A DNA stretch of 64,000 nucleotides from NCBI GenBank assembly GCA_002452155.1, contig DKEK01000005.1, positions 70,675 to 134,674 of the forward strand. The letters are read 5' to 3'. The DNA comes from Candidatus Saccharibacteria bacterium UBA6824. GTDB lineage: Bacteria; Patescibacteriota; Saccharimonadia; Saccharimonadales; UBA10212. The position numbers were made by a program, and so were the translations under genes. Positions 3,977 through 61,867 of this stretch are shown here, piece after piece. Below the pieces are notes generated by a model. That model ran no database searches and was not told the DNA's origin. It saw only the letters and a list, made by a program, of their open reading frames with translations. The number at the start of each line of letters is the position of its first letter. The first letter of the stretch is position 1.

Positions 3977-4123
3977 ATGTCCTGGGATTGGAGCTCACCT
4001 ATCGCTCTTGGCCTGTTTCTGCTCATGGCAAGCGTGGCGCTTGTCGGCGTCAGCGTAGCCATCGCGGTTGTCAGCGGCCGAGCCAAAGTCGCTGATCTAC
4101 CAGCATTCGCCTTCTGGCGCTAA
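3977..4123 (+). CDS. small hydrophobic protein (48 aa), hypothetical
   Basis: Not in the track because it is under 60 aa. GGTAGAGGGG lies upstream of the ATG. Translation is MSWDWSSPIALGLFLLMASVALVGVSVAIAVVSGRAKVADLPAFAFWR (one TM helix). A hairpin plus T-run follows at about 4141-4176. Confidence 0.4.
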   Translation: MSWDWSSPIALGLFLLMASVALVGVSVAIAVVSGRAKVADLPAFAFWR

Positions 4124-4277
4124 ATTTCTATTCTCGAGAATAAAAAATCCCCGCTCATTGTGGCCGGGATTTTTTATATTTGCTATACTTACCCCTGTTC
4201 TCAGTCTAATCCAATTTTGTGAAAACCCGCTTTAGCAGTTTTTACGAAATTGAAAGGAGTCCGCCTAGGCGGACGAC

Positions 4278-4354
4278 GCGGGTGTAGCTCAGTTGTTTAG
4301 AGCGCGTCCTTGCCAAGGACGAGGCCAGGGGTTAGAGTCCCCTCACCCGCACCA
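4278..4354 (+). tRNA. tRNA-Gly(GCC)
   Basis: Acceptor stem GCGGGTG/CACCCGC, anticodon stem CGTCC/GGACG with loop TTGCCAA, encoded CCA. A perfect 16-bp palindrome GTCCGCCTAGGCGGAC (4259..4274) precedes it. Confidence 0.9.
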
Positions 4355-4435
4355 TCCTACTTCGCGTAAAGCTTCGTAGGATTTGTGCGAAGTAGGATGC
4401 CCTCCATAGCCTTTTGGCGACGGAGGGCTTATTGT

Positions 4436-4681
4436 ATGACTATGTTTTACGTATATCTACTTAGGAGTCTTAATTATAACCAGACTTATGTCGGTTTCTC
4501 GAGAGACGTCCAAATAAGATTAAATCACCACAACGAAGGAAAAAGTCCGCATACAAGCAAATACAAACCCTGGAAACTGGTAACGTATTTTGGTTTTGAA
4601 TCTGAATCAAGAGCAAGGGAATTTGAGAAGTACCTAAAAACAGGATCGGGCATTGCTTTTGCCAGAAGACATCTTTTTTAG
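4436..4681 (+). CDS. GIY-YIG (COG2827/YhbQ-like URI-domain) nuclease
   Basis: Translation is M(T)MFYVYLLRSLNYNQTYVGFSRDVQIRLNHHNEGKSPHTSKYKPWKLVTYFGFESESRAREFEKYLKTGSGIAFARRHLF, a canonical small GIY-YIG layout. The track ORF starts at 4385; ATG 4436 or 4442 is the more likely start. Confidence 0.75.
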   Translation: MTMFYVYLLRSLNYNQTYVGFSRDVQIRLNHHNEGKSPHTSKYKPWKLVTYFGFESESRAREFEKYLKTGSGIAFARRHLF

Positions 4682-4718
4682 TTCCACCTGCCCGCCGAAG
4701 CTTTAGCGTAGGGTGGGT

Positions 4719-4740
4719 CACCCGCACCAAGCATAAGTAT
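4719..4740 (+). repeat. att-like junction: second copy of tRNA-Gly 3' end (TCACCCGCACCA) overlapping left copy of 17-bp direct repeat GCACCAAGCATAAGTAT
   Basis: TCACCCGCACCA at 4719..4730 repeats 4343..4354, the tRNA-Gly 3' end. GCACCAAGCATAAGTAT at 4724..4740 is repeated exactly at 6309..6325. Confidence 0.85.
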
Positions 4741-4806
4741 TATGACCTCTGTTTATTCAGGGGTTTTTTATTTAGGTATATACTGAGATTAAGGTTAATA
4801 GACACA

Positions 4807-6186
4807 ATGAGCAACAAACGACCTCTGCTAAAAGCCTTGAGGCAGACCATGATTCAAGATGTACCGGCTTACGCCAACAAGTTTTTCTACTCCCTTGGAT
4901 TTCTGTCGATGACTTGTTTTATGATTCTGCTCGTGACGGGAGTCGTAATGGCGGGTTTCGGTCCCGATTGGTGGCTGACTAGCGGGATTGGCAGATACTT
5001 TCGCAGTGTCCATCTTTGGGCCACCCAAGCTTTTGTACTGTTTATTATTCTGCATCTTCTGATTGTATTTTTGACTTCCGGCTTTAAAAAACCGCGGCGT
5101 TTGACTTGGGTAATAGGTGCCATAATGTTCTTCTTCGTGATAGCCGAAGCCGAGTTTGGTTATGTACTGCGGGGCGATTTTTCCGGCCAATGGCGCTCTC
5201 TACAAGGAGCCGATTTCTATAACGGTACTGGCATCGGCGCCTGGATTAACAATATTAACTACCGACAGATTTATGGCATTCATGTTGTAGCAATTCCGAT
5301 TATCCTGCTGGGGCTGCTGTTTTTACACTACTTACGAATACGTATCTTGGGCATTGCCGAGCCCTACCGGAAAGACGTTCATGTGCCGACAGTTAGGGCA
5401 AACCACAAGGCGCTGTTTGTCCGGGGTGGTGTACTAATAGGACTAATCTTAGCCTTGTCTGTTTTATTGCCATCACCATTTTTGGAACCTAACACCGCTA
5501 AACAAGTCGCCGCCAGCGACCCTAAACTGGTAGGCCAAACTCTCATAAAAGAATTTGACCGCTCTTCCGACACCGCGGGGTATCTCGATAGTATTGACCC
5601 CTATAAATATGATACAAGGAGTATTTATGTAGAGCAGCCATATGCTCAGTTGTCTAGCCTGTTACATACGCCAAACTTGCTGCAAAAATATAATTCTGAG
5701 CCGCAGGCTTTGCAGGACTCTCAACTGAAAGCTGCCCAAGACTACTTTGATAATGCCTACCCGGCCAAAGCCGATGCTAACAACCCGCTTGAGCCAGTCG
5801 TAATATCTTTGATAAACATGGCTTCAGCCGGGCTGTACCAGCCGGCGCTTAACTCGGCTAGCCCGTCGGGCGACCAAACGACCTACGGCCTGCGTTTTTT
5901 GGCCGACACCGGTGTCATGGATGACCGGGCGCAAGCTCTAGGCATTACCACCGACCAATATGGTATGCTGCGCGAAGAAAAGGGGCGTATTCCCCCCGGT
6001 GCTTGGTGGCTAGCGCCAATCGGCCTGCTTAATCATACCGTACTGGCTCATGACGATAACGGTGACCGAGACGGTGCCATAATCATGGGGTTATTCTTAC
6101 TGTTACTTATTGCATTCCCTTACATACCAGGCTTAAACCGACTGCCCGAGTGGCTGAAGGTCTCCAAACTAATTTGGCGTGTATAG
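4807..6186 (+). CDS. di-haem cytochrome b N-terminal-domain protein fused to an unknown ~200-aa domain and a C-terminal TM helix
   Basis: 459 aa. The cytochrome b/b6 N-terminal pattern is present: FYSLGFLS..., helix B HLWATQAFVLFIILH (H-x13-H), helix D HVVAIPIILLGLLFLH (H-x14-H), and WVIGAIMFF...GYVL between them. No Rieske or cytochrome c partner gene is adjacent. Confidence 0.7.
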   Translation: MSNKRPLLKALRQTMIQDVPAYANKFFYSLGFLSMTCFMILLVTGVVMAGFGPDWWLTSGIGRYFRSVHLWATQAFVLFIILHLLIVFLTSGFKKPRRLTWVIGAIMFFFVIAEAEFGYVLRGDFSGQWRSLQGADFYNGTGIGAWINNINYRQIYGIHVVAIPIILLGLLFLHYLRIRILGIAEPYRKDVHVPTVRANHKALFVRGGVLIGLILALSVLLPSPFLEPNTAKQVAASDPKLVGQTLIKEFDRSSDTAGYLDSIDPYKYDTRSIYVEQPYAQLSSLLHTPNLLQKYNSEPQALQDSQLKAAQDYFDNAYPAKADANNPLEPVVISLINMASAGLYQPALNSASPSGDQTTYGLRFLADTGVMDDRAQALGITTDQYGMLREEKGRIPPGAWWLAPIGLLNHTVLAHDDNGDRDGAIIMGLFLLLLIAFPYIPGLNRLPEWLKVSKLIWRV

Positions 6187-6338: not shown

Positions 6339-6869
6339 TCAAACTGTACGATATTTAATGGTTTTCGTAACTTCCGGATCGACTACATACGTATGGCTCT
6401 TAAAGGTACGGATTGTGAACACATATACCCAGATCAGGCCGTAAAGCAGGCCTAGCACAACTCCAGTGTCAATAATACCCCTCCATGGTTGAGGTAAATA
6501 ACGGACTATTACAACTATCAGAGCAATGCCTACCGTTAAAGACCAACTAGTAATCATACGTTTTCGGGTTGTATGGAAATAACCTATGCAATATAGCGGA
6601 GCTAAAATTAAGTCAATTGGACGACCATGATTAACTAGGTGCCAAGTACGCGCAGCGACACGAGGTGAAAATAGTTTCTGAAAGCCCCGGTAGCCCTCAG
6701 CTACGACCATGAACACACACCAAAGTATCAATACTATCCATTCGAGCGGGGATAACCTTACTTTAAAAGCATCAAAAACGTGAGGCAAAACACGCGCAGT
6801 CGCACTGCCTAGAATGAGCGTAACACCTAAAATACCCCATATCGCGCCAAAGATGTGCGCCACCTTCAA
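6339..6869 (-). CDS. polytopic membrane protein, unknown function
   Basis: 176-aa ORF with about 5 hydrophobic helices. It lies 17 nt downstream of the acidic-protein gene on the same strand. I recognise no motif. Confidence 0.55.
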   Translation of the reverse strand: MKVAHIFGAIWGILGVTLILGSATARVLPHVFDAFKVRLSPLEWIVLILWCVFMVVAEGYRGFQKLFSPRVAARTWHLVNHGRPIDLILAPLYCIGYFHTTRKRMITSWSLTVGIALIVVIVRYLPQPWRGIIDTGVVLGLLYGLIWVYVFTIRTFKSHTYVVDPEVTKTIKYRTV

Positions 6870-9831: not shown

Positions 9832-9854
9832 CAAAAAACCCTGTAAAAACAAAA

Positions 9855-9878
9855 TGCGCGGGTTTTTTTGCCCGCGCA
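9855..9878. terminator. bidirectional rho-independent terminator
   Basis: TGCGCGGG-TTTTTTTG-CCCGCGCA with T-rich runs on both strands. It sits between convergent genes ending at 9831 (+) and 9921 (-). Confidence 0.75.
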
Positions 9879-9920
9879 CATAAGCTTTTTGTTTAACTTT
9901 ATTTTGGCTTGTTTTGTGAT

Positions 9921-10253
9921 TTAGAGATTACCCTGGCGGTTGCCACACAGAGCACTGTTGTTTAAGCCCGTCTGCTGGCCATTTGCGCCACCACGAAAGT
10001 CATGTGTTACATCACCGTGCTCTCCAAATGCGCCAAAGGCTCCTGAACCAGCTCCTGTATCGCATTGAGCTCCAGCTGCAGCTGCACTTTCACAGCCGTT
10101 GGAAGAATTTACGCAGTACCCTCCGCCACCGTTTACGGCAAGAGCTGGAATCGCTGCCCCGCCGACCATCACCATGCTAGCGACGACGCTAACTATATAT
10201 TTCTTAATGCTTCCTTTGTCGCGTTGTACGCGTTCACCAATTTTGTACCTCAT
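9921..10253 (-). CDS. small secreted Gly-rich, 4-Cys protein (110-aa precursor)
   Basis: AAGGAGGA RBS 3 nt before the ATG. Signal peptide ...VVASMVMVGGAAIPALA, then VNGGGGYCVNSSNGCESAAAAGAQCDTGAGSGAFGAFGEHGD...ALCGNRQGNL. Confidence 0.65.
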   Translation of the reverse strand: MRYKIGERVQRDKGSIKKYIVSVVASMVMVGGAAIPALAVNGGGGYCVNSSNGCESAAAAGAQCDTGAGSGAFGAFGEHGDVTHDFRGGANGQQTGLNNSALCGNRQGNL

Positions 10254-10289
10254 AGGTCCTCCTTAATTTGTAGCTTCATTGTAGCACCA

Positions 10290-10357
10290 CCCCACACCTT
10301 TTGCAGGCGTTCTCGTAATCTGATTGCAGATTACTCCCACCCTGAAAAGGTACGGGG
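10290..10357 (-). promoter_or_regulatory. conserved ~66-nt hairpin motif, copy B (structured 5' element or operator)
   Basis: Minus strand reads CCCCGTACCTTTTCAGGGTGGGAGTAATCTGCAATCAGATTACGAGAACGCCTGCAAAAGGTGTGGGG. There is an outer 13-bp stem and an inner 8-bp hairpin GTAATCTG-CAAT-CAGATTAC. It is co-linear with 22881..22946 (+). It ends about 40 nt upstream of the 10253 start codon. Confidence 0.6.
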
Positions 10358-10403
10358 CAAGTATTTTTAGCAAAAAACACAAATAAAAGACTCTTAAAAC
10401 AAA

Positions 10404-10429
10404 GTGCGCGGGCTTTTTTGCCCGCGCAC
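10404..10429. terminator. rho-independent terminator (paralogous to 9855..9878)
   Basis: GTGCGCGGGC-TTTTTT-GCCCGCGCAC. It lies within a ~75-nt block (10394..10464) that is about 85% identical by eye to 9845..9915. Confidence 0.75.
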
Positions 10430-10464
10430 GATAACCTTTTTGTTTACTTCTATTTTAGCCTATT

Positions 10465-20037: not shown

Positions 20038-22849
20038 CCTTCAGCATCTTTTTCAGGAATTGGCCGGTGTAGCTTTGTTTGTTCTTAGCAACTTGTTCGG
20101 GCGTGCCCTGGGCCACAATTTGGCCGCCGGCGTCGCCGCCTTCAGGGCCCATGTCTATAACGTGGTCGGCATTTTTAATCACGTCCAGATTATGTTCGAT
20201 CACAATCATGCTGTTGCCAGTATCAACTAAGGCGTGTAGGACTTGCAAGAGCTTGTCGACATCGGCCATGTGCAGACCGGTGGTCGGTTCGTCCAAAATA
20301 TAAAGCGTGCGGCCGGTGGGGCGGCGGCTGAGCTCGGTAGCTAATTTTACCCGCTGGGCCTCGCCCCCTGACAGAGTCGTGGCTGGCTGGCCGAGCTTGA
20401 TGTAGCCCAGACCGACATCGACCAGTGTTTGCAGTTTGCGGGCAATGCTGGGAATATTTTCAAAAAATTCCAGTGCCTGTTCGGTTGTCATTTCCAGCAC
20501 GTCACTTATGATTTTGCCTTTGTAATGGATCTCTAGCGCCTCACGGTTGTAGCGTTTGCCGTGGCAGACTTCGCAGGTTACGTAGACATCGGGCAAAAAG
20601 TGCATTTCGATTTTTATGACGCCGTCGCCGGCACAGTTTTCGCAACGGCCGCCCTTAACGTTGAAACTGAAGCGGCCGGGACTGTAGCCGCGCAACCGGG
20701 CTTCCGGCGTGGCCGCAAAAAGTTCACGGATAGGTGTAAAAACCCCAGTATAGGTCGCCGGGTTACTGCGCGGCGTCCGGCCAATGGGTGATTGGTCTAT
20801 GACAATCGCTTTGTCGAGATTTTTAATGCCTTCAATATCATAATGGCGGCCCGGCACGGTCTGGGCCCGCATCAGCCGGGCCTGCAGTTCCTTGGCTAGG
20901 ATATCGTTTATCAAACTTGACTTGCCCGAGCCGGACACGCCACTGACAACCACTAGCTGGCCAAGCGGGATTTTTACATCCAGGTTTTTGAGGTTATTTT
21001 CGCGGGCACCTTTAATAAGCAGTTCGCTGCCATTGCCCGGACGACGATATTTGGGGGTGTCGATCTTTCGTTCGCCGCGCAAAAATTGGGCAGTAACAGA
21101 GTTTTTAACTTTAACGACCTGATCCGGCGCACCGGTAGCTACGATTTTACCGCCGTGGATACCGGCACCGGGTCCGATATCGACCAAAAAATCGGCGCTT
21201 CTAATGGTCTCCTCGTCGTGCTCGACGACAATTACAGTGTTGCCGAGATCGCGTAATTTTTCCAAGGTATTTAAAAGGCGCCGGTTGTCGCGCTGGTGCA
21301 GGCCGATGCTTGGTTCATCTAGAACGTAGAGTACGCCCTGCAGGCCCGAACCGATTTGGGTGGCCAAACGAATGCGCTGAGCCTCGCCACCAGCCAAACT
21401 CACGGCACTGCGCGCCAAGTTTAAATAATTTAGGCCGACGTCTTGTAAAAACTTCAGCCGAGCATTGATTTCTTTTAGAATCTGACTAGCGATTTTAGCC
21501 TCGGTGGCACTAAGCTTAACAGTGCCAAAAAACAGGGCGGCTTTATCGATGTCCATTTCACAGATATCCGTGATGGATTTGGCGGCAACTGTCACGGCCA
21601 AAACCTCGGGCTTGAGGCGCTTACCGCCACAGGCGTGGCAGGGACGTTCCTGCATATATCTTTGGATATCGCGGCGAATAAAGTCGCTGTCTGTTTCTTT
21701 GTGCCGGCGTTCCAGATTGGGAATCACGCCCTCATAGGTTGTATTAAATGTCCGGCCCATGCCCAACGAGACGCTGTAGGTTTCACCACCTGTACCGTAC
21801 ATGATGGTATCTAACTGGCTCTTGGTCAGCTCGCTAGTAGGCACATGCAGGCTGAATCTGAATTTATCGGCTACGGCTTGCAGTTTTTTCATCCACCAGG
21901 CGTCGGTATTAATTCGGTTAAAGGGGCGGATGGCGCCTTCGGCGATGGTCAGCCGGCCGTTGGGAATGACTAGATCCGGGTCGACTTCCAGGCGGTTGCC
22001 TAGTCCTGTACACACTGGACAAGCACCGTGCGGCGAGTTAAAGCTAAAGGTGCGGGGTTCTAATTCCGGGATGGCGACATCGGGATGGTCGACACAAGCA
22101 TACTTGAGCGAATAGTGCAGGTCCTGCTTGGTGTCAGCATCGTGGACGGTGATTAAACCATCGGCTATATCCAGCGTTTGTTCCACGCTTTGGGCCAGAC
22201 GTGTTCGGCTTTCGCTGTTATTGACCAAGCGGTCAACGACGATGTCAATATTGTGCTTGAAGTTCTTGTCCAATTGCGGAAATTCATCGAGGGCATAAAT
22301 CACACCGTCGACCCGCGCCCGGGCAAAGCCGGCGCGCTGGAACTGTTCGGGAATGTGTTCGAAGGCGCCCTTTTTATCAATTACCACTGGTGCTAGGATG
22401 ATAATTTTGGCACTTTTGGTAGCTTCAATTATTTGATCAAGTATGGCGCCAGAGGTTTGGCGGGTGACCGGTTTGCCGCAGATCGGGCAGTGCGGAATGC
22501 CAATCCGGGCAAAGAGTAGGCGCAAGTAATCATAAATTTCGGTCACTGTGGCCACCGTACTGCGCGGGTTGCGGCTGGTCGATTTTTGGTCAATGCTGAT
22601 TGCCGGGCTGAGACCGTCGATCTGGTCGACGTCCGGTTTTTCCATAATGCCCAAAAACTGCCGGGCATATGCACTCAGCGATTCTACGTAACGCCGCTGT
22701 CCCTCAGCATAGATCGTATCGAATGCCAAAGAAGACTTGCCGGAACCCGACAGGCCGGTTATAACAATCAGTTTCTCGCGCGGGATCTGTAGGCTAACAT
22801 TCTTAAGATTATGCTCACGAGCCCCCCGTACAGATATAAAATCAGACAA
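20030..22849 (-). CDS. uvrA: excinuclease ABC subunit A
   Basis: 939 aa. It has two ABC ATPase modules ([18 protein letters not shown]; LSGGEAQR twice) and Zn-finger Cys clusters. Confidence 0.97.
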
Positions 22850-22880
22850 AATACCTCCAAAAAAAATAAGCCGAACCTGT

Positions 22881-22946
22881 CCAGCACATTTTCGGGGTGA
22901 TAGTAGTCTGCAATCAGATTACGAAAACGCCTGCAAAATGTGCTGG
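22881..22946 (+). promoter_or_regulatory. conserved ~66-nt hairpin motif, copy A
   Basis: CCAGCACATTTTCGGGGTGATAGTAGTCTGCAATCAGATTACGAAAACGCCTGCAAAATGTGCTGG. There is an outer 12-bp perfect stem and an inner hairpin GTAGTCTG-CAAT-CAGATTAC. It lies 32 nt upstream of the uvrA start (antisense to uvrA) and 140 nt upstream of the 23086 ORF (sense). Confidence 0.6.
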
Positions 22947-23085
22947 ATGATTATACACAAATTTTCCGAATTTTTCTAGTCCTACGGTGTGGCACCGCAA
23001 ATAAGCATTAGTAATATAAAGATATTGCATATTTAGCAAATAAGTAGTACAATGCTAATACTTTAAACCCTTCTAAGGCGTAAAA

Positions 23086-32624: not shown

Positions 32625-34505
32625 TTATTCCAGAACGGCTTTGATGCGGCGGACGCCGGCAGAAGAAGCTTCTTCTTTAACGATTTTGAATTTTTTGCCG
32701 CCTTCACCGATCATGCCGGTATGCTGCACGTGCGGGCCGCCGCAAATTTCGCGGCTGAAAGGCTTTTTGGGGTCGCCAATTGTATAAACTTTGACGCTGT
32801 CGCCGTATTTATCGCCAAAGGCGCCGGAGGCGCCTTTTTTGAAAGCCTCATCGGTGGGCTCTTCTTTCCAAGTGACCGGCAGATCTTCGGCGATTTTACG
32901 GTTAACTATAGCTTCGACTTTTTTAATCTGCTGGGGGGTGACTTTTTCCGGATGGGAAAAATCAAAGCGAGTCCGCTCGTCCGTAATGTTACTACCACGC
33001 TGGACTATGTGATCGCCCAACACTTCTTTGAGGGCTTCGTACATCAGATGTGTGGTCGTGTGGAGCTCAACAACAGCCTCGGAATGGTCGGCTAGTCCGC
33101 CCTTAAACATACCCTGGCTGGCAGTCTGACTGCGCTTTTTCTGCTGCTGCATAGACTCGTCAAAGTCAGCCCGCCAATTTGGGTCGACTTCGACTTTTTG
33201 CAGATAGGCTTCTTCGATGCTAAGCTCTGCAGGAAAGCCGTAAGTGTCGTACAGCTTAAAAACGTCTTCACCAGATAAGGTTTGCTTTTTCTGCGACATT
33301 TTTGCAAATTCCCTGACACCGGCCCTCAAAGTTTGACGGAAGATGTTTTCTTCCTTTATAAAAGCGTGCACGATGTTGTTTTTGCGCTCTTTGACTTCCG
33401 GAAAATCCGGCTCGTACAGACTCGTGACAATTGGTACAACTTCCTCACAAAGATGCTGCTCGATGCCAAGTTCAAACGCGTAGCGGATTGCCCGACGCAG
33501 CAAGCGGCGCAAGACATAGCCTTGGGCTTTATTGCTCGGGATTACTCCGTCAACACCCAGCCAGACGGCCGCCCGCATATGGTCGGCAATTACGCGCATC
33601 GCCGCCTGATATTGATCATAATTTTTGCCGCTCAAAACCTCTAGTCCGTTAATTATTGGCTTAAGCAAGCTAATCTGGAAAATGTCCGGGTTATTGATGG
33701 CCGCGGCGGCGATGCGCTCCAGGCCGCCGCCAAAGTCGACATTGGGTTTTGGTAGCTGCTCAAAACCCTTGGCCGTTTTTTTGTAGGCCATAAAAACGCT
33801 GTTAGCAATTTCCAAAAACCGGCCACAGTCGCAGTTGAGGTGGCAGTGTTTACCGTATTTTTCGTTGTGCGGTGTACCAAAATCATAAAAAACTTCGCTA
33901 TCGGGGCCGCCCGGCTCGCCCTCGCGCATATGGCTGGGTTCACCCTCGCGGCTCCACCAGTTTCTTGACGCGTCGTAATAAAAAATCCGGCCATCTTGCA
34001 TGCCTTTTTCATAACCATCTTGCTCCGAGCCCAAATCGACTTCTTTGGCGTCAATGCCGGCTTCTTTGTAGAGTTTCTTCCAAATCCCGGCCGATTCGGT
34101 ATCTTTTGGGGTTTCCGTTTTTACATCGCCAATAAAACAAGTAACGTAAAGTTTTTGCGGATCCAGCCCAACGACTTTGGTTAAGAATTCCCAGATCCAG
34201 GGCAGTTGCTCGGCTTTATAATAATCGCCCAGGCTCCAGTTACCGAGCATTTCGAAAAAGGTCGTGTGGCGGTTGTCTCCAACTTCGTCCATGTCCTCGG
34301 CCCGGAAGCACGTCTGGCTATCGACTAGCCGCTTGCCAGCCGGATGTTTTTCGCCCAAAAGATAAGGCACCAATGGCTGCATGCCGCTGCCGGTGAAAAG
34401 CGTCGTTGAGTCGTCTTTGGGCACCAGCGGCGCCCGCGGTATGACTTTATGCTCCCGCGCCTCAAAAAACTCCAAGTATTTTTTTCGTATCTCCTGCGCC
34501 GTCAT
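32625..34505 (-). CDS. alaS: alanine--tRNA ligase, short form lacking the C-terminal C-Ala/DHHA1 domain
   Basis: Class II catalytic core (FTGSGMQP, FEMLGNWSLGDYYK) and editing domain (HTTTHLMYEALK...CGGPHV). It ends after the editing domain at 626 aa. Confidence 0.9.
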   Translation of the reverse strand: MTAQEIRKKYLEFFEAREHKVIPRAPLVPKDDSTTLFTGSGMQPLVPYLLGEKHPAGKRLVDSQTCFRAEDMDEVGDNRHTTFFEMLGNWSLGDYYKAEQLPWIWEFLTKVVGLDPQKLYVTCFIGDVKTETPKDTESAGIWKKLYKEAGIDAKEVDLGSEQDGYEKGMQDGRIFYYDASRNWWSREGEPSHMREGEPGGPDSEVFYDFGTPHNEKYGKHCHLNCDCGRFLEIANSVFMAYKKTAKGFEQLPKPNVDFGGGLERIAAAAINNPDIFQISLLKPIINGLEVLSGKNYDQYQAAMRVIADHMRAAVWLGVDGVIPSNKAQGYVLRRLLRRAIRYAFELGIEQHLCEEVVPIVTSLYEPDFPEVKERKNNIVHAFIKEENIFRQTLRAGVREFAKMSQKKQTLSGEDVFKLYDTYGFPAELSIEEAYLQKVEVDPNWRADFDESMQQQKKRSQTASQGMFKGGLADHSEAVVELHTTTHLMYEALKEVLGDHIVQRGSNITDERTRFDFSHPEKVTPQQIKKVEAIVNRKIAEDLPVTWKEEPTDEAFKKGASGAFGDKYGDSVKVYTIGDPKKPFSREICGGPHVQHTGMIGEGGKKFKIVKEEASSAGVRRIKAVLE

Positions 34506-34631
34506 TAAGCTAATTGTAACAGAGGTAATAAACTAATTAAACTACGATGCCGCCCAGCACTAAATCTTGATGCTCCGCAATCCGATTACCGACTGCTTCG
34601 TTCAGGATTTAGATCGGGGCAAGCCGCCTTG

Positions 34632-52460: not shown

Positions 52461-52846
52461 TGGTGGAGCTGGTGGGAATTGCGCCCACGTCCGATGGTTT
52501 AATTAACTAGCGCTCTACAGGTTTAGGCCACTTAATATTGTTCGGAAACGAAGACCGCTAAATGGCCAAAAAGTCTCGTTCCCTAGTCCAAAATCTTAAC
52601 AAATCTCTAGGACACTGAGATTTGGGCAACCAGATGATATGACACACTGTAGACTCTATCTGATATCGAGCCGAGCATGGCTTACGAAATTAAGCGTAAG
52701 CTGGTGCGAAAACCGGCATGCTGAACATGCTAGCCATTCGCGAAACAAAAGATTTTACATCTATTGTGGTTGCACCGGATAACGTTCAGTGCAATCCGAC
52801 CTGCAAGCTAGTTGTTAAAGTCCACCGTCAAGCTGAAATCAGCCCC
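52461..52846 (-). ncRNA. ssrA: tmRNA (SsrA)
   Basis: The 5' end GGGGCTGATTTCAGC... pairs with the 3' end ...GGACGTGGGCGCAATTCCCACCAGCTCCACCA. That gives a tRNA-Ala-like acceptor with a G3:U pair, a T arm and CCA. An internal open frame ends ...MPVFAPAYA-TAA (stop at 52690..52692). Length 386 nt. Confidence 0.88.
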
Positions 52847-61473: not shown

Positions 61474-61867
61474 TTCATCCGCTTTGATAATCATATAATC
61501 AGCCATATTTTATCACTTCTAAGGTGTTTTAATGGCATCAAAAAAACCCTCGGAACTCCGAAGGTTTCATTAATTCGTTGGTCTCATACAATTTTATAAA
61601 AACACGCAGTGCAGGTTTTTATAAAATTGAGAGGAGCAACATAGCACTAGACCGAAGCTTTTAGCGACTAGCTAAAACGAGGTAGGTGCGTAAGTTGCGA
61701 CGAGCGGTCAGTCATGATAGCTCTACCTAAACCCTAGCACATTTTACCCCTTGGGGCAACTGTTATCCACAGCGTTCGCAGGGACTAGCCTTCCGCGGGC
61801 AAAGGACAGTCCCCGTAAGTGGAGTACGCCCAGGAAGGCGTACTCCACTGCAAAGGTTAAATTTGTT

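Follow-up and report, generated by a model that had tools for sequence, protein, structure and literature searches.

The window, by which we mean the whole 64,000-nt stretch of DNA that was analysed, is a housekeeping stretch of a Saccharimonadales chromosome (uvrA, uvrC, alaS, mnmA, ATP synthase, metG, pgk, and uvrD), with a tmRNA gene (52461–52846, minus strand; 104 bits) and eight tRNA genes scattered over it. At 9921–10253 (minus strand) lies a gene for a Gly/Cys-rich secreted peptide of 110 aa, preceded by the ribosome-binding site (RBS) AAGGAGG at 10258–10264, an extended −10 box TGCTACAAT at 10278–10286 (minus strand), and the hairpin motif with which this study is concerned (copy B). 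This peptide is part of a family, at least 302 small proteins strong, that matches no Pfam entry, and those members that were followed up are encoded in Saccharibacteria-type contigs. Near-identical intrinsic terminators (GTGCGCGGGCAAAAAA[G/A]CCCGCGCA[C/T] and a T run) flank the peptide gene at 10404–10429 and 9854–9879 (both minus strand), the one after the upstream gene for a 254-aa protein and the other after the peptide gene itself.

The original prediction took the motif for a cis-regulatory RNA within the 5′ leader of the peptide gene or, alternatively, for a DNA operator, and drew attention to a TACAAT −10-like box between the motif and the RBS. The box is indeed present, as part of the extended −10 TGCTACAAT, which begins 3 nt downstream of copy B. 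At the orthologous locus in another contig (L130; peptide 72% identical), the terminator is followed by GGTGGTGTTACAAT, an RBS, and ATG, with no element; the box there is TGTTACAAT, with GGTGG before it. In the window, copy B ends 3 nt ahead of the TG in GGTGGTGCTACAAT, so that the comparison with L130 sets the 3′ boundary of the element. Because the extended −10 is conserved in the element-free L130, the promoter is native to the gene, and the motif is predicted to lie outside that transcript. The motif was likewise absent across the loci of four orthologue groups of the peptide gene sampled from other genomes. Judged by these sequence comparisons, the peptide gene is a neighbour of copy B and not its target.

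Copy B (10290–10361, minus strand; covariance model score 96.7 bits, E 1.5e-22) has a close counterpart elsewhere in the window, copy A (22876–22947, plus strand; 96.4 bits). As had been proposed, the two align without gaps over the motif (10290–10357, minus strand, with 22881–22946, plus strand) and share a near-invariant core; gap-free alignment over the motif holds for 10282–10364 (minus strand) versus 22873–22955 (plus strand), and the 32-nt core TCTGCAATCAGATTACGA[G/A]AACGCCTGCAAAA occurs exactly twice in the window, with zero occurrences expected from 100 shuffles. Both copies are imperfect palindromes of about 72 nt, and their shared fold comprises, from the base upward, a 13-bp outer stem, a 6-bp middle stem with one bulged G, a 4 × 4 purine internal loop, an 8-bp apical stem, and a CAAT loop. 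In copy B these parts are a 5′ CTTG, the outer stem CCCCGTACCTTTT/AAAAGGTGTGGGG, the middle stem CAGGGT/ACGCCTG, the internal loop GGGA/GAGA, and the apical stem GTAATCTG/CAGATTAC closed by CAAT. An unpaired CYTG is kept at the 5′ end of the element, which gives the limits 10290–10361 and 22876–22947; the hairpin proper is about 68 nt long.

The outer-stem arms of copy A (TCCAGCACATTTT/AAAATGTGCTGGA) differ from those of copy B and remain paired. The compensatory changes and the two G-T wobbles of the original prediction were recovered in this stem, but the pairs altered on both sides number three and not two (one T-A to C-G and two A-T to C-G), the third being the outermost pair (T-A to C-G). 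The inner hairpin GTA(A/G)TCTG-CAAT-CAGATTAC is kept in both copies with a single A-T to G-T change, again in agreement with the prediction. On the motif strand the two copies fold with −38.1 and −38.3 kcal/mol (z = −5.5 and −7.5 versus shuffles), whereas their opposite strands fold more weakly (−31.5 and −27.7 kcal/mol). Copy B is identical in four samples of one species, and there is therefore no sign of present-day activity.

The two copies belong to a larger family. When 185,579 species genomes were scanned for the exact pattern, the core turned up in two Candidatus Saccharibacteria MAGs (L001 and L002), and a metagenome pattern scan found four additional distinct copies, in L020, L060, L061, and L075. 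Among the 120 loci listed in the metagenome scan, six hits were true copies and more than 100 were a chance match in a human-gut coding gene, 106 of them with one identical flanking sequence; the gapped pattern hits most of L003–L122 by chance as GGGGTGGAAGTATGAAAAATCCATTACGAAAACGCCTGC, part of a very common gene of human-gut metagenomes with no relation to the element. With a covariance model built from eight copies (R1), four more were added: one in the window (its third), one in L001 (its second), and two further ones in L060. Copy 3 (34545–34626, minus strand) represents a diverged subfamily, with the apical stem GCAGTCGG-TAAT-CGGATTGC; it scores 23.4 bits with R1 and 47.1 bits (E 9e-9) with a second model (R2), which was built from 11 copies with copy 3 left out of training. 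The family thus numbers 12 copies in seven genomes or contigs, all intergenic and on both strands, with nine copies lying outside the window in six other Candidatus Saccharibacteria contigs (L001, L002, L020, L060, L061, and L075). The original prediction had looked to covariance-model searches of genomes, metagenomes, and Rfam for further support: the former gave additional copies and covariation in other Saccharibacteria contigs, and Rfam gave no matching family. Rfam 15, searched with the whole window at the gathering threshold, returned the tmRNA and the eight tRNAs and no family over the motif, and a search of 10200–10450 at E values up to 10 returned weak matches to the neighbouring terminator and none over the motif.

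A unit of the family comprises a 5′ unpaired CYTG, an outer stem of 13–16 bp, a middle stem of 6 bp, an internal loop that is rich in purines and closed by G.A and A.G, a highly conserved 8-bp apical stem, and a CAAT loop. In the diverged copies compensatory changes preserve every helix: among the examples are U-A to C-G for the apical stem, G-C to A-U for the middle stem, and, for the outer stem, four flips from U-A to A-U. In the 11-copy alignment, which was fitted to the model so that its counts lean towards the structure, 91.5% of cells pair versus 39–48% (about 42%) with slid partners, and 16 of the 30 pairs change on both sides, through all three helices; the observed pairing values were reached by none of 500 shuffles. 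RNAalifold gives the same fold independently of the model, and a gap-free MAFFT alignment of eight copies is 93.8% paired with eight double-change pairs. The claim that covariation reflects selection on structure is accordingly upheld by the wider family. The unpaired CAAT loop is nearly invariant across copies, the G and A that close the internal loop on either side do not vary among the eight close copies and persist in the diverged ones, and sequence conservation is higher at the centre of the element than at its ends, with the 8-bp apical arms and the 4-nt loop the most conserved. In DNA palindromes, compensatory changes can also arise through hairpin-templated correction (quasi-palindrome mutagenesis). 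Such correction would tend to erase internal loops, which are conserved here.

The structure is also asymmetric between strands. The strand chosen in the original prediction proved to be the better-folding one in 12 of 12 copies, by 4.4–11.7 kcal/mol, and we refer to it as the sense strand. Ten of the 11 aligned copies retain a G.U pair in the apical stem, and G.U pairs occur at eight stem positions versus genuine A.C mismatches at about two. A strand-biased mutation process is an unlikely cause, because the copies lie in both orientations with respect to transcription and alternate strand within 25 kb. It seems, therefore, that the hairpin of one particular strand matters, as RNA or as single-stranded DNA.

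The genes adjoining the copies are unrelated to each other. They include, in addition to the Gly/Cys-rich peptide gene, uvrA together with an ORF for a 68-aa membrane protein, mnmA/alaS, ndk with tRNA-Arg, a xerD-like recombinase gene, a gene for a type IV secretion system (T4SS) coupling protein, topA/dprA, rpmE, and a gene for an RRM protein. Orientation relative to the neighbouring genes is mixed: five copies are flanked by co-directional genes, two of them running with the local transcription and three against it (those antisense to both neighbours being L001 2118–2198, L060 8660–8742, and L061 583–665), and three other copies sit between convergent genes. Copies B, 3, L020, L075, and L001 2968–3050 lie upstream of a gene in the sense orientation, and the spacing from a copy to the next promoter or start ranges from 3 to about 95 nt. 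Copy 3, for example, starts 6 nt past the mnmA stop codon and about 45 nt upstream of the alaS −10 box. The alaS upstream region itself (34505–34530, minus strand) reads TGTTACAAT, 7 nt, ATG, that is, an extended −10 followed by a leaderless mRNA; this TGnTACAAT type of promoter is common to alaS and the peptide gene.

There is no conserved promoter upstream of the copies and no T run after the stem on the sense strand of any copy, and a reading of the element sequence found no hexamer pair with usable spacing on either strand, such that the element does not appear to carry a promoter. An intrinsic terminator was rejected because there is no U tract and the canonical terminator is separate, at 10404–10429. 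A coding function for the core was also rejected: three frames are open in most copies, but L060 1130–1212 has an in-frame stop, L001 2118–2198 and the second subfamily have frame-breaking indels, and a search of 1.84 billion representative proteins found the peptide read from the core only in three spurious ORFs. A link between copy orientation and replication was rejected in view of the flat GC skew and the alternating strands of the three window copies. An association with DnaA boxes was considered because perfect TTATCCACA 9-mers abut two copies (one such 9-mer abuts the first copy in L060), but box counts at these places are at chance level.

At uvrA, copy A lies between the −10 box and the start codon and is antisense on the uvrA mRNA strand. 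A promoter-like site (TAGAAA, 17 nt, TATAAT; 22950–22978, minus strand) is conserved in relatives, and in the window the element follows directly downstream of it; the uvrA start region (22847–22875, minus strand) has a TTG start at 22847–22849 and the Shine–Dalgarno sequence GGAGG at 22854–22858. Three relatives with UvrA 89–92% identical (L123, L124, and L125) share the gene order PaaX-like gene, small ORF, and uvrA with the window, with one extra gene inserted in L124, and their loci contain no copy of the element in 68 kb. Each has an empty site upstream of uvrA, TAGAAA-17 nt-TATAAT-CAT|TCGGCTTT-ATG. The empty site TATAATCAT|TCGGCTTT-ATG in L123 corresponds to the filled site TATAATCAT-[element]-TTCGGCTT in the window, where the flanks are split as TATAAT-CAT-[element, antisense]-TTCGGCTT and are followed by about 17 extra bases with GGAGG and the TTG start. 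Insertion at uvrA was thus precise, with a target duplication of at most 1 bp, this being a single site that gives both boundaries. Precise deletion of the hairpin in the relatives is formally possible as an alternative to insertion at any single site.

In the three relatives, uvrA is of the leaderless type, with TATAAT, 11 nt, and ATG (L123 9945–10014, and likewise L125 and L124), and the stretch of about 17 nt in the start region is absent. The window (22847–22978, minus strand) and a sister genome, L158 (UvrA 92% identical), instead share a leadered uvrA arrangement with a new GGAGG Shine–Dalgarno sequence and TTG start, which suggests, from sequence comparison, that insertion was followed by remodelling of the uvrA start region. 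L158 has a 75-nt palindrome (6378–6452, minus strand) at this uvrA site, CTTG-CCCAGCACTTAAAGCC-[39 nt]-GGCTTTAAGTGCTGGG, which shares with copy A the CYTG and the first eight outer-stem pairs; one of these pairs shows a T-A to C-G compensatory change between the two genomes, which speaks for constraint on the stem in place. The interior of the palindrome bears no relation to the family core, and within it lies a terminator-like hairpin (ATAGCCG-TTTTTA-CGGCTAT). This interior had no further copy in 573 kb of loci, and the covariance model sees the palindrome by its ends alone (21 bits). An insertion in a common ancestor may later have had its interior exchanged; alternatively, the ends may accommodate different interiors.

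Within the lineage the distribution is patchy. UvrA homologues at 84–92% identity are all labelled Saccharibacteria or Saccharimonadales, and the loci sampled from ten related genomes gave no match to the element. The core is near-identical in the window and in L002, though a Pgk fragment is just 59% identical between them. The L002 locus is syntenic with about 61–62.3 kb of the window, where the window has neither the element nor the Y1 transposase gene that adjoins it in L002, and this synteny (at about 61.77 kb) provides a second definition of the 3′ boundary of the element. Patchy presence, precise empty sites, and a core far better conserved than the genomes of its hosts together indicate an element that is mobile or has spread horizontally and is subject to a constraint of its own. 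Density is about three copies per 64 kb, from which any number per genome is an extrapolation based on a few tens of kilobases. A phage or plasmid origin was rejected: blastn against 50,697 phage records and 72,556 plasmid records gave no match, and scans of viral contigs gave nothing, or chance 20-mers.

The element is a new, lineage-restricted, small palindromic repeat family in a CPR phylum, similar in kind to REP and ERIC sequences and a member of none of the families against which it was tested. Like the REP/REPIN-RAYT systems of gamma-proteobacteria and Pseudomonas, it consists of short, extragenic, imperfect palindromes in multiple copies and both orientations, with compensatory change preserving the hairpin, a conserved tetranucleotide at its 5′ foot, no target duplication, and one strand that matters. 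In contrast to those systems, in which a hairpin of 20–40 nt or a doublet of them is accompanied by GTAG, it is a single 72-nt hairpin with CYTG, its centre is more conserved than its ends, and its density is modest. A tblastn search of the 64-kb window found no Y1_Tnp gene. The only Y1 transposase seen near a copy is that of L002, which encodes an IS200-like, RAYT-like Y1_Tnp (Pfam E 5.6e-11) in an ORF at 4104–4733 (plus strand); this ORF is flanked at 4078–4103 and 4742–4767 by a different palindrome, TGCTACAAGGAT.ATCCTTGTAGCA; in the form TGCTACAAGGAT[T/A]ATCCTTGTAGCA this palindrome contains CTAC...GTAG, and the locus has the appearance of a classical REP-RAYT arrangement within a Saccharibacteria MAG. 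We rejected the notion that the element is the REP of the L002 RAYT, since that gene has its own, different flanking palindromes and these are absent from the window.

The ERIC (IRU) elements of enterobacteria, the Correia (NEMIS) elements of Neisseria, and the RUP and BOX elements of Streptococcus pneumoniae are, like the present family, intergenic imperfect palindromes of about 70–130 bp in either orientation, with a conserved central inverted repeat, long hairpins when transcribed, and a patchy occurrence among related genomes. The means by which ERIC, Correia, RUP, and BOX elements are mobilised are mostly unknown. Compared by family descriptions only, these elements differ from the present one in having unrelated sequences and belonging to phyla other than the Patescibacteria (CPR); in addition, Correia and RUP elements are bounded by defined terminal inverted repeats and duplicate their target (TA in the case of Correia), as opposed to at most 1 bp at uvrA. 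The subterminal hairpins of IS200/IS605 elements and the ORF-less PATEs resemble the family in their strand-specific imperfect hairpin with conserved mismatches, their foot tetranucleotide, and insertion without target duplication. IS200/IS605 elements, however, carry a different hairpin at each end, left and right, and their insertion point is 3′ of a fixed tetranucleotide target, whereas here there is one hairpin, no common target sequence in the flanks, and no tnpA or tnpB nearby. The element also does not fit a MITE derived from a DDE transposase, in which terminal inverted repeats are best conserved and the target duplication is 2–10 bp: here the ends vary more than the centre, and the duplication is at most 1 bp at uvrA (a single site). 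TIGR-Tas systems consist of arrayed hairpin units with pairs of box C (RUGAUGA) and box D (CUGA) and an adjoining gene for a Nop-domain Tas protein (PMC12045711). The present copies are solitary, with variable box C positions and no Nop-domain protein among the window proteins scanned, and the G.A and A.G of the internal loop are two residues apart and not tandem as in a k-turn, so that a TIGR-Tas unit was rejected.

We consider copy B to be, with a probability of about 60%, a member of a dispersed, non-autonomous, REP/ERIC-like structured repeat family present in some Saccharibacteria (Saccharimonadales) genomes. The existence of the family, the conservation of its structure, the strand asymmetry, the empty orthologous sites, and the patchy distribution are direct observations; we infer that the unit is non-autonomous and acts via a folded single strand that is read by a trans-acting protein. 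Units would have inserted into intergenic DNA in either orientation with a target duplication of at most 1 bp, copy B landing just upstream of the native extended −10 of the peptide gene and copy A within the interval between the uvrA promoter and start. Spread, now or once, would have proceeded via the single-stranded hairpin of one specific strand, recognised by a trans-acting enzyme in the way that HUH/Y1 enzymes recognise REP or IS200/IS605 hairpins, with the conserved core as the putative recognition module. A transcribed copy would add a stable hairpin of about 30 bp to an mRNA, and could thereby have local side effects, such as the apparent conversion of the uvrA mRNA from a leaderless type to a leadered one dependent on a Shine–Dalgarno sequence. 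Weighing against this reading, no mobilising enzyme was identified. The window genes are all housekeeping genes; no transposase, integrase, reverse transcriptase, or Nop-domain gene was found among those checked. Somewhat speculatively, the family may be the first REP-like system described in the Patescibacteria (CPR), a strand-specific hairpin module constrained in structure, in which the purine-rich internal loop and invariant apical stem-loop would be read as single-stranded DNA or RNA by a not-yet-recognised enzyme or RNA-binding protein; the ends (CYTG and outer stem) may carry different interiors, as suggested by the L158 variant at uvrA.

Also counting against a mobile repeat is the greater conservation of the centre relative to the ends, the reverse of the pattern in MITEs and REPINs and more typical of a functional RNA. 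This pattern would be expected if the element were an RNA module on the sense strand (a protein-binding, processing, or stability element, or a small RNA) for which dispersal is secondary, and such a module would also account for covariation in all helices, for G.U pairs and lower free energy on the sense strand only, for the constancy of the unpaired CAAT loop and the G..A/GA.A internal loop, and for a core conserved across distant genomes. We regard it as the less probable account, while taking it seriously: the copies have no conserved promoter upstream, three of the five between co-directional genes are antisense, copy A is antisense in the uvrA leader, the element is wholly absent from the sampled loci of closer relatives and has no Rfam match, and a single-stranded DNA intermediate accounts equally well for the strand asymmetry.

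The narrower, original proposal, in which a riboswitch or other cis-regulatory leader occupies the 5′ UTR of the peptide gene and of the gene that follows copy A, is very improbable. A stable and conserved fold, together with the five sense-oriented copies upstream of genes, is what such a leader would predict, but the native promoter TGCTACAAT lies 3′ of the motif and is present in the motif-free L130, four orthologue groups of the peptide gene lack the motif, the downstream genes are mutually unrelated and variably spaced, and six copies are either antisense to both neighbours (three) or between convergent genes (three). A double-stranded DNA operator carried by the element, with GTARTCTG-N4-CAGATTAC as the putative site of a dimeric regulator (PaaX-like, MarR, or other), fares little better and is improbable, even though the apical arms and their 4-bp spacer are the most conserved part and copies are often near promoters. 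In the window the apical palindrome never occurs outside the full element, its distance to −10 boxes is not fixed, and in L123–L125 the PaaX-like gene is present beside an empty site; moreover, an operator leaves the covariation of the outer and middle stems and the constant strand asymmetry unexplained. Neither of the two original explanations is therefore retained, and the dispersed-repeat reading is preferred.

The genomes of Saccharibacteria are very small; few mobile elements have been recognised in them and hardly any non-coding features described, and a search of the literature on Saccharibacteria with RNA motifs, REP, or MITE found nothing relevant. A structured repeat in promoter-proximal DNA, as at uvrA, implies that the intergenic regions of Saccharibacteria are still being remodelled, and the repeat offers a handle for strain typing and for tracing its mobilising enzyme. 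It also calls for caution in annotation, as covariation and an upstream position are insufficient for a riboswitch, palindromic repeats giving the same signal. Separately from the repeat family, an intergenic block at 61690–61775 (plus strand), beside tRNA-Glu, is conserved between the window and about 4870–4950 (plus strand) of L002, two distant genomes; its sequence, GAGCGGTCAGTCA...CTAGCACA...TTATCCACA, ends in a perfect DnaA-box-like 9-mer.
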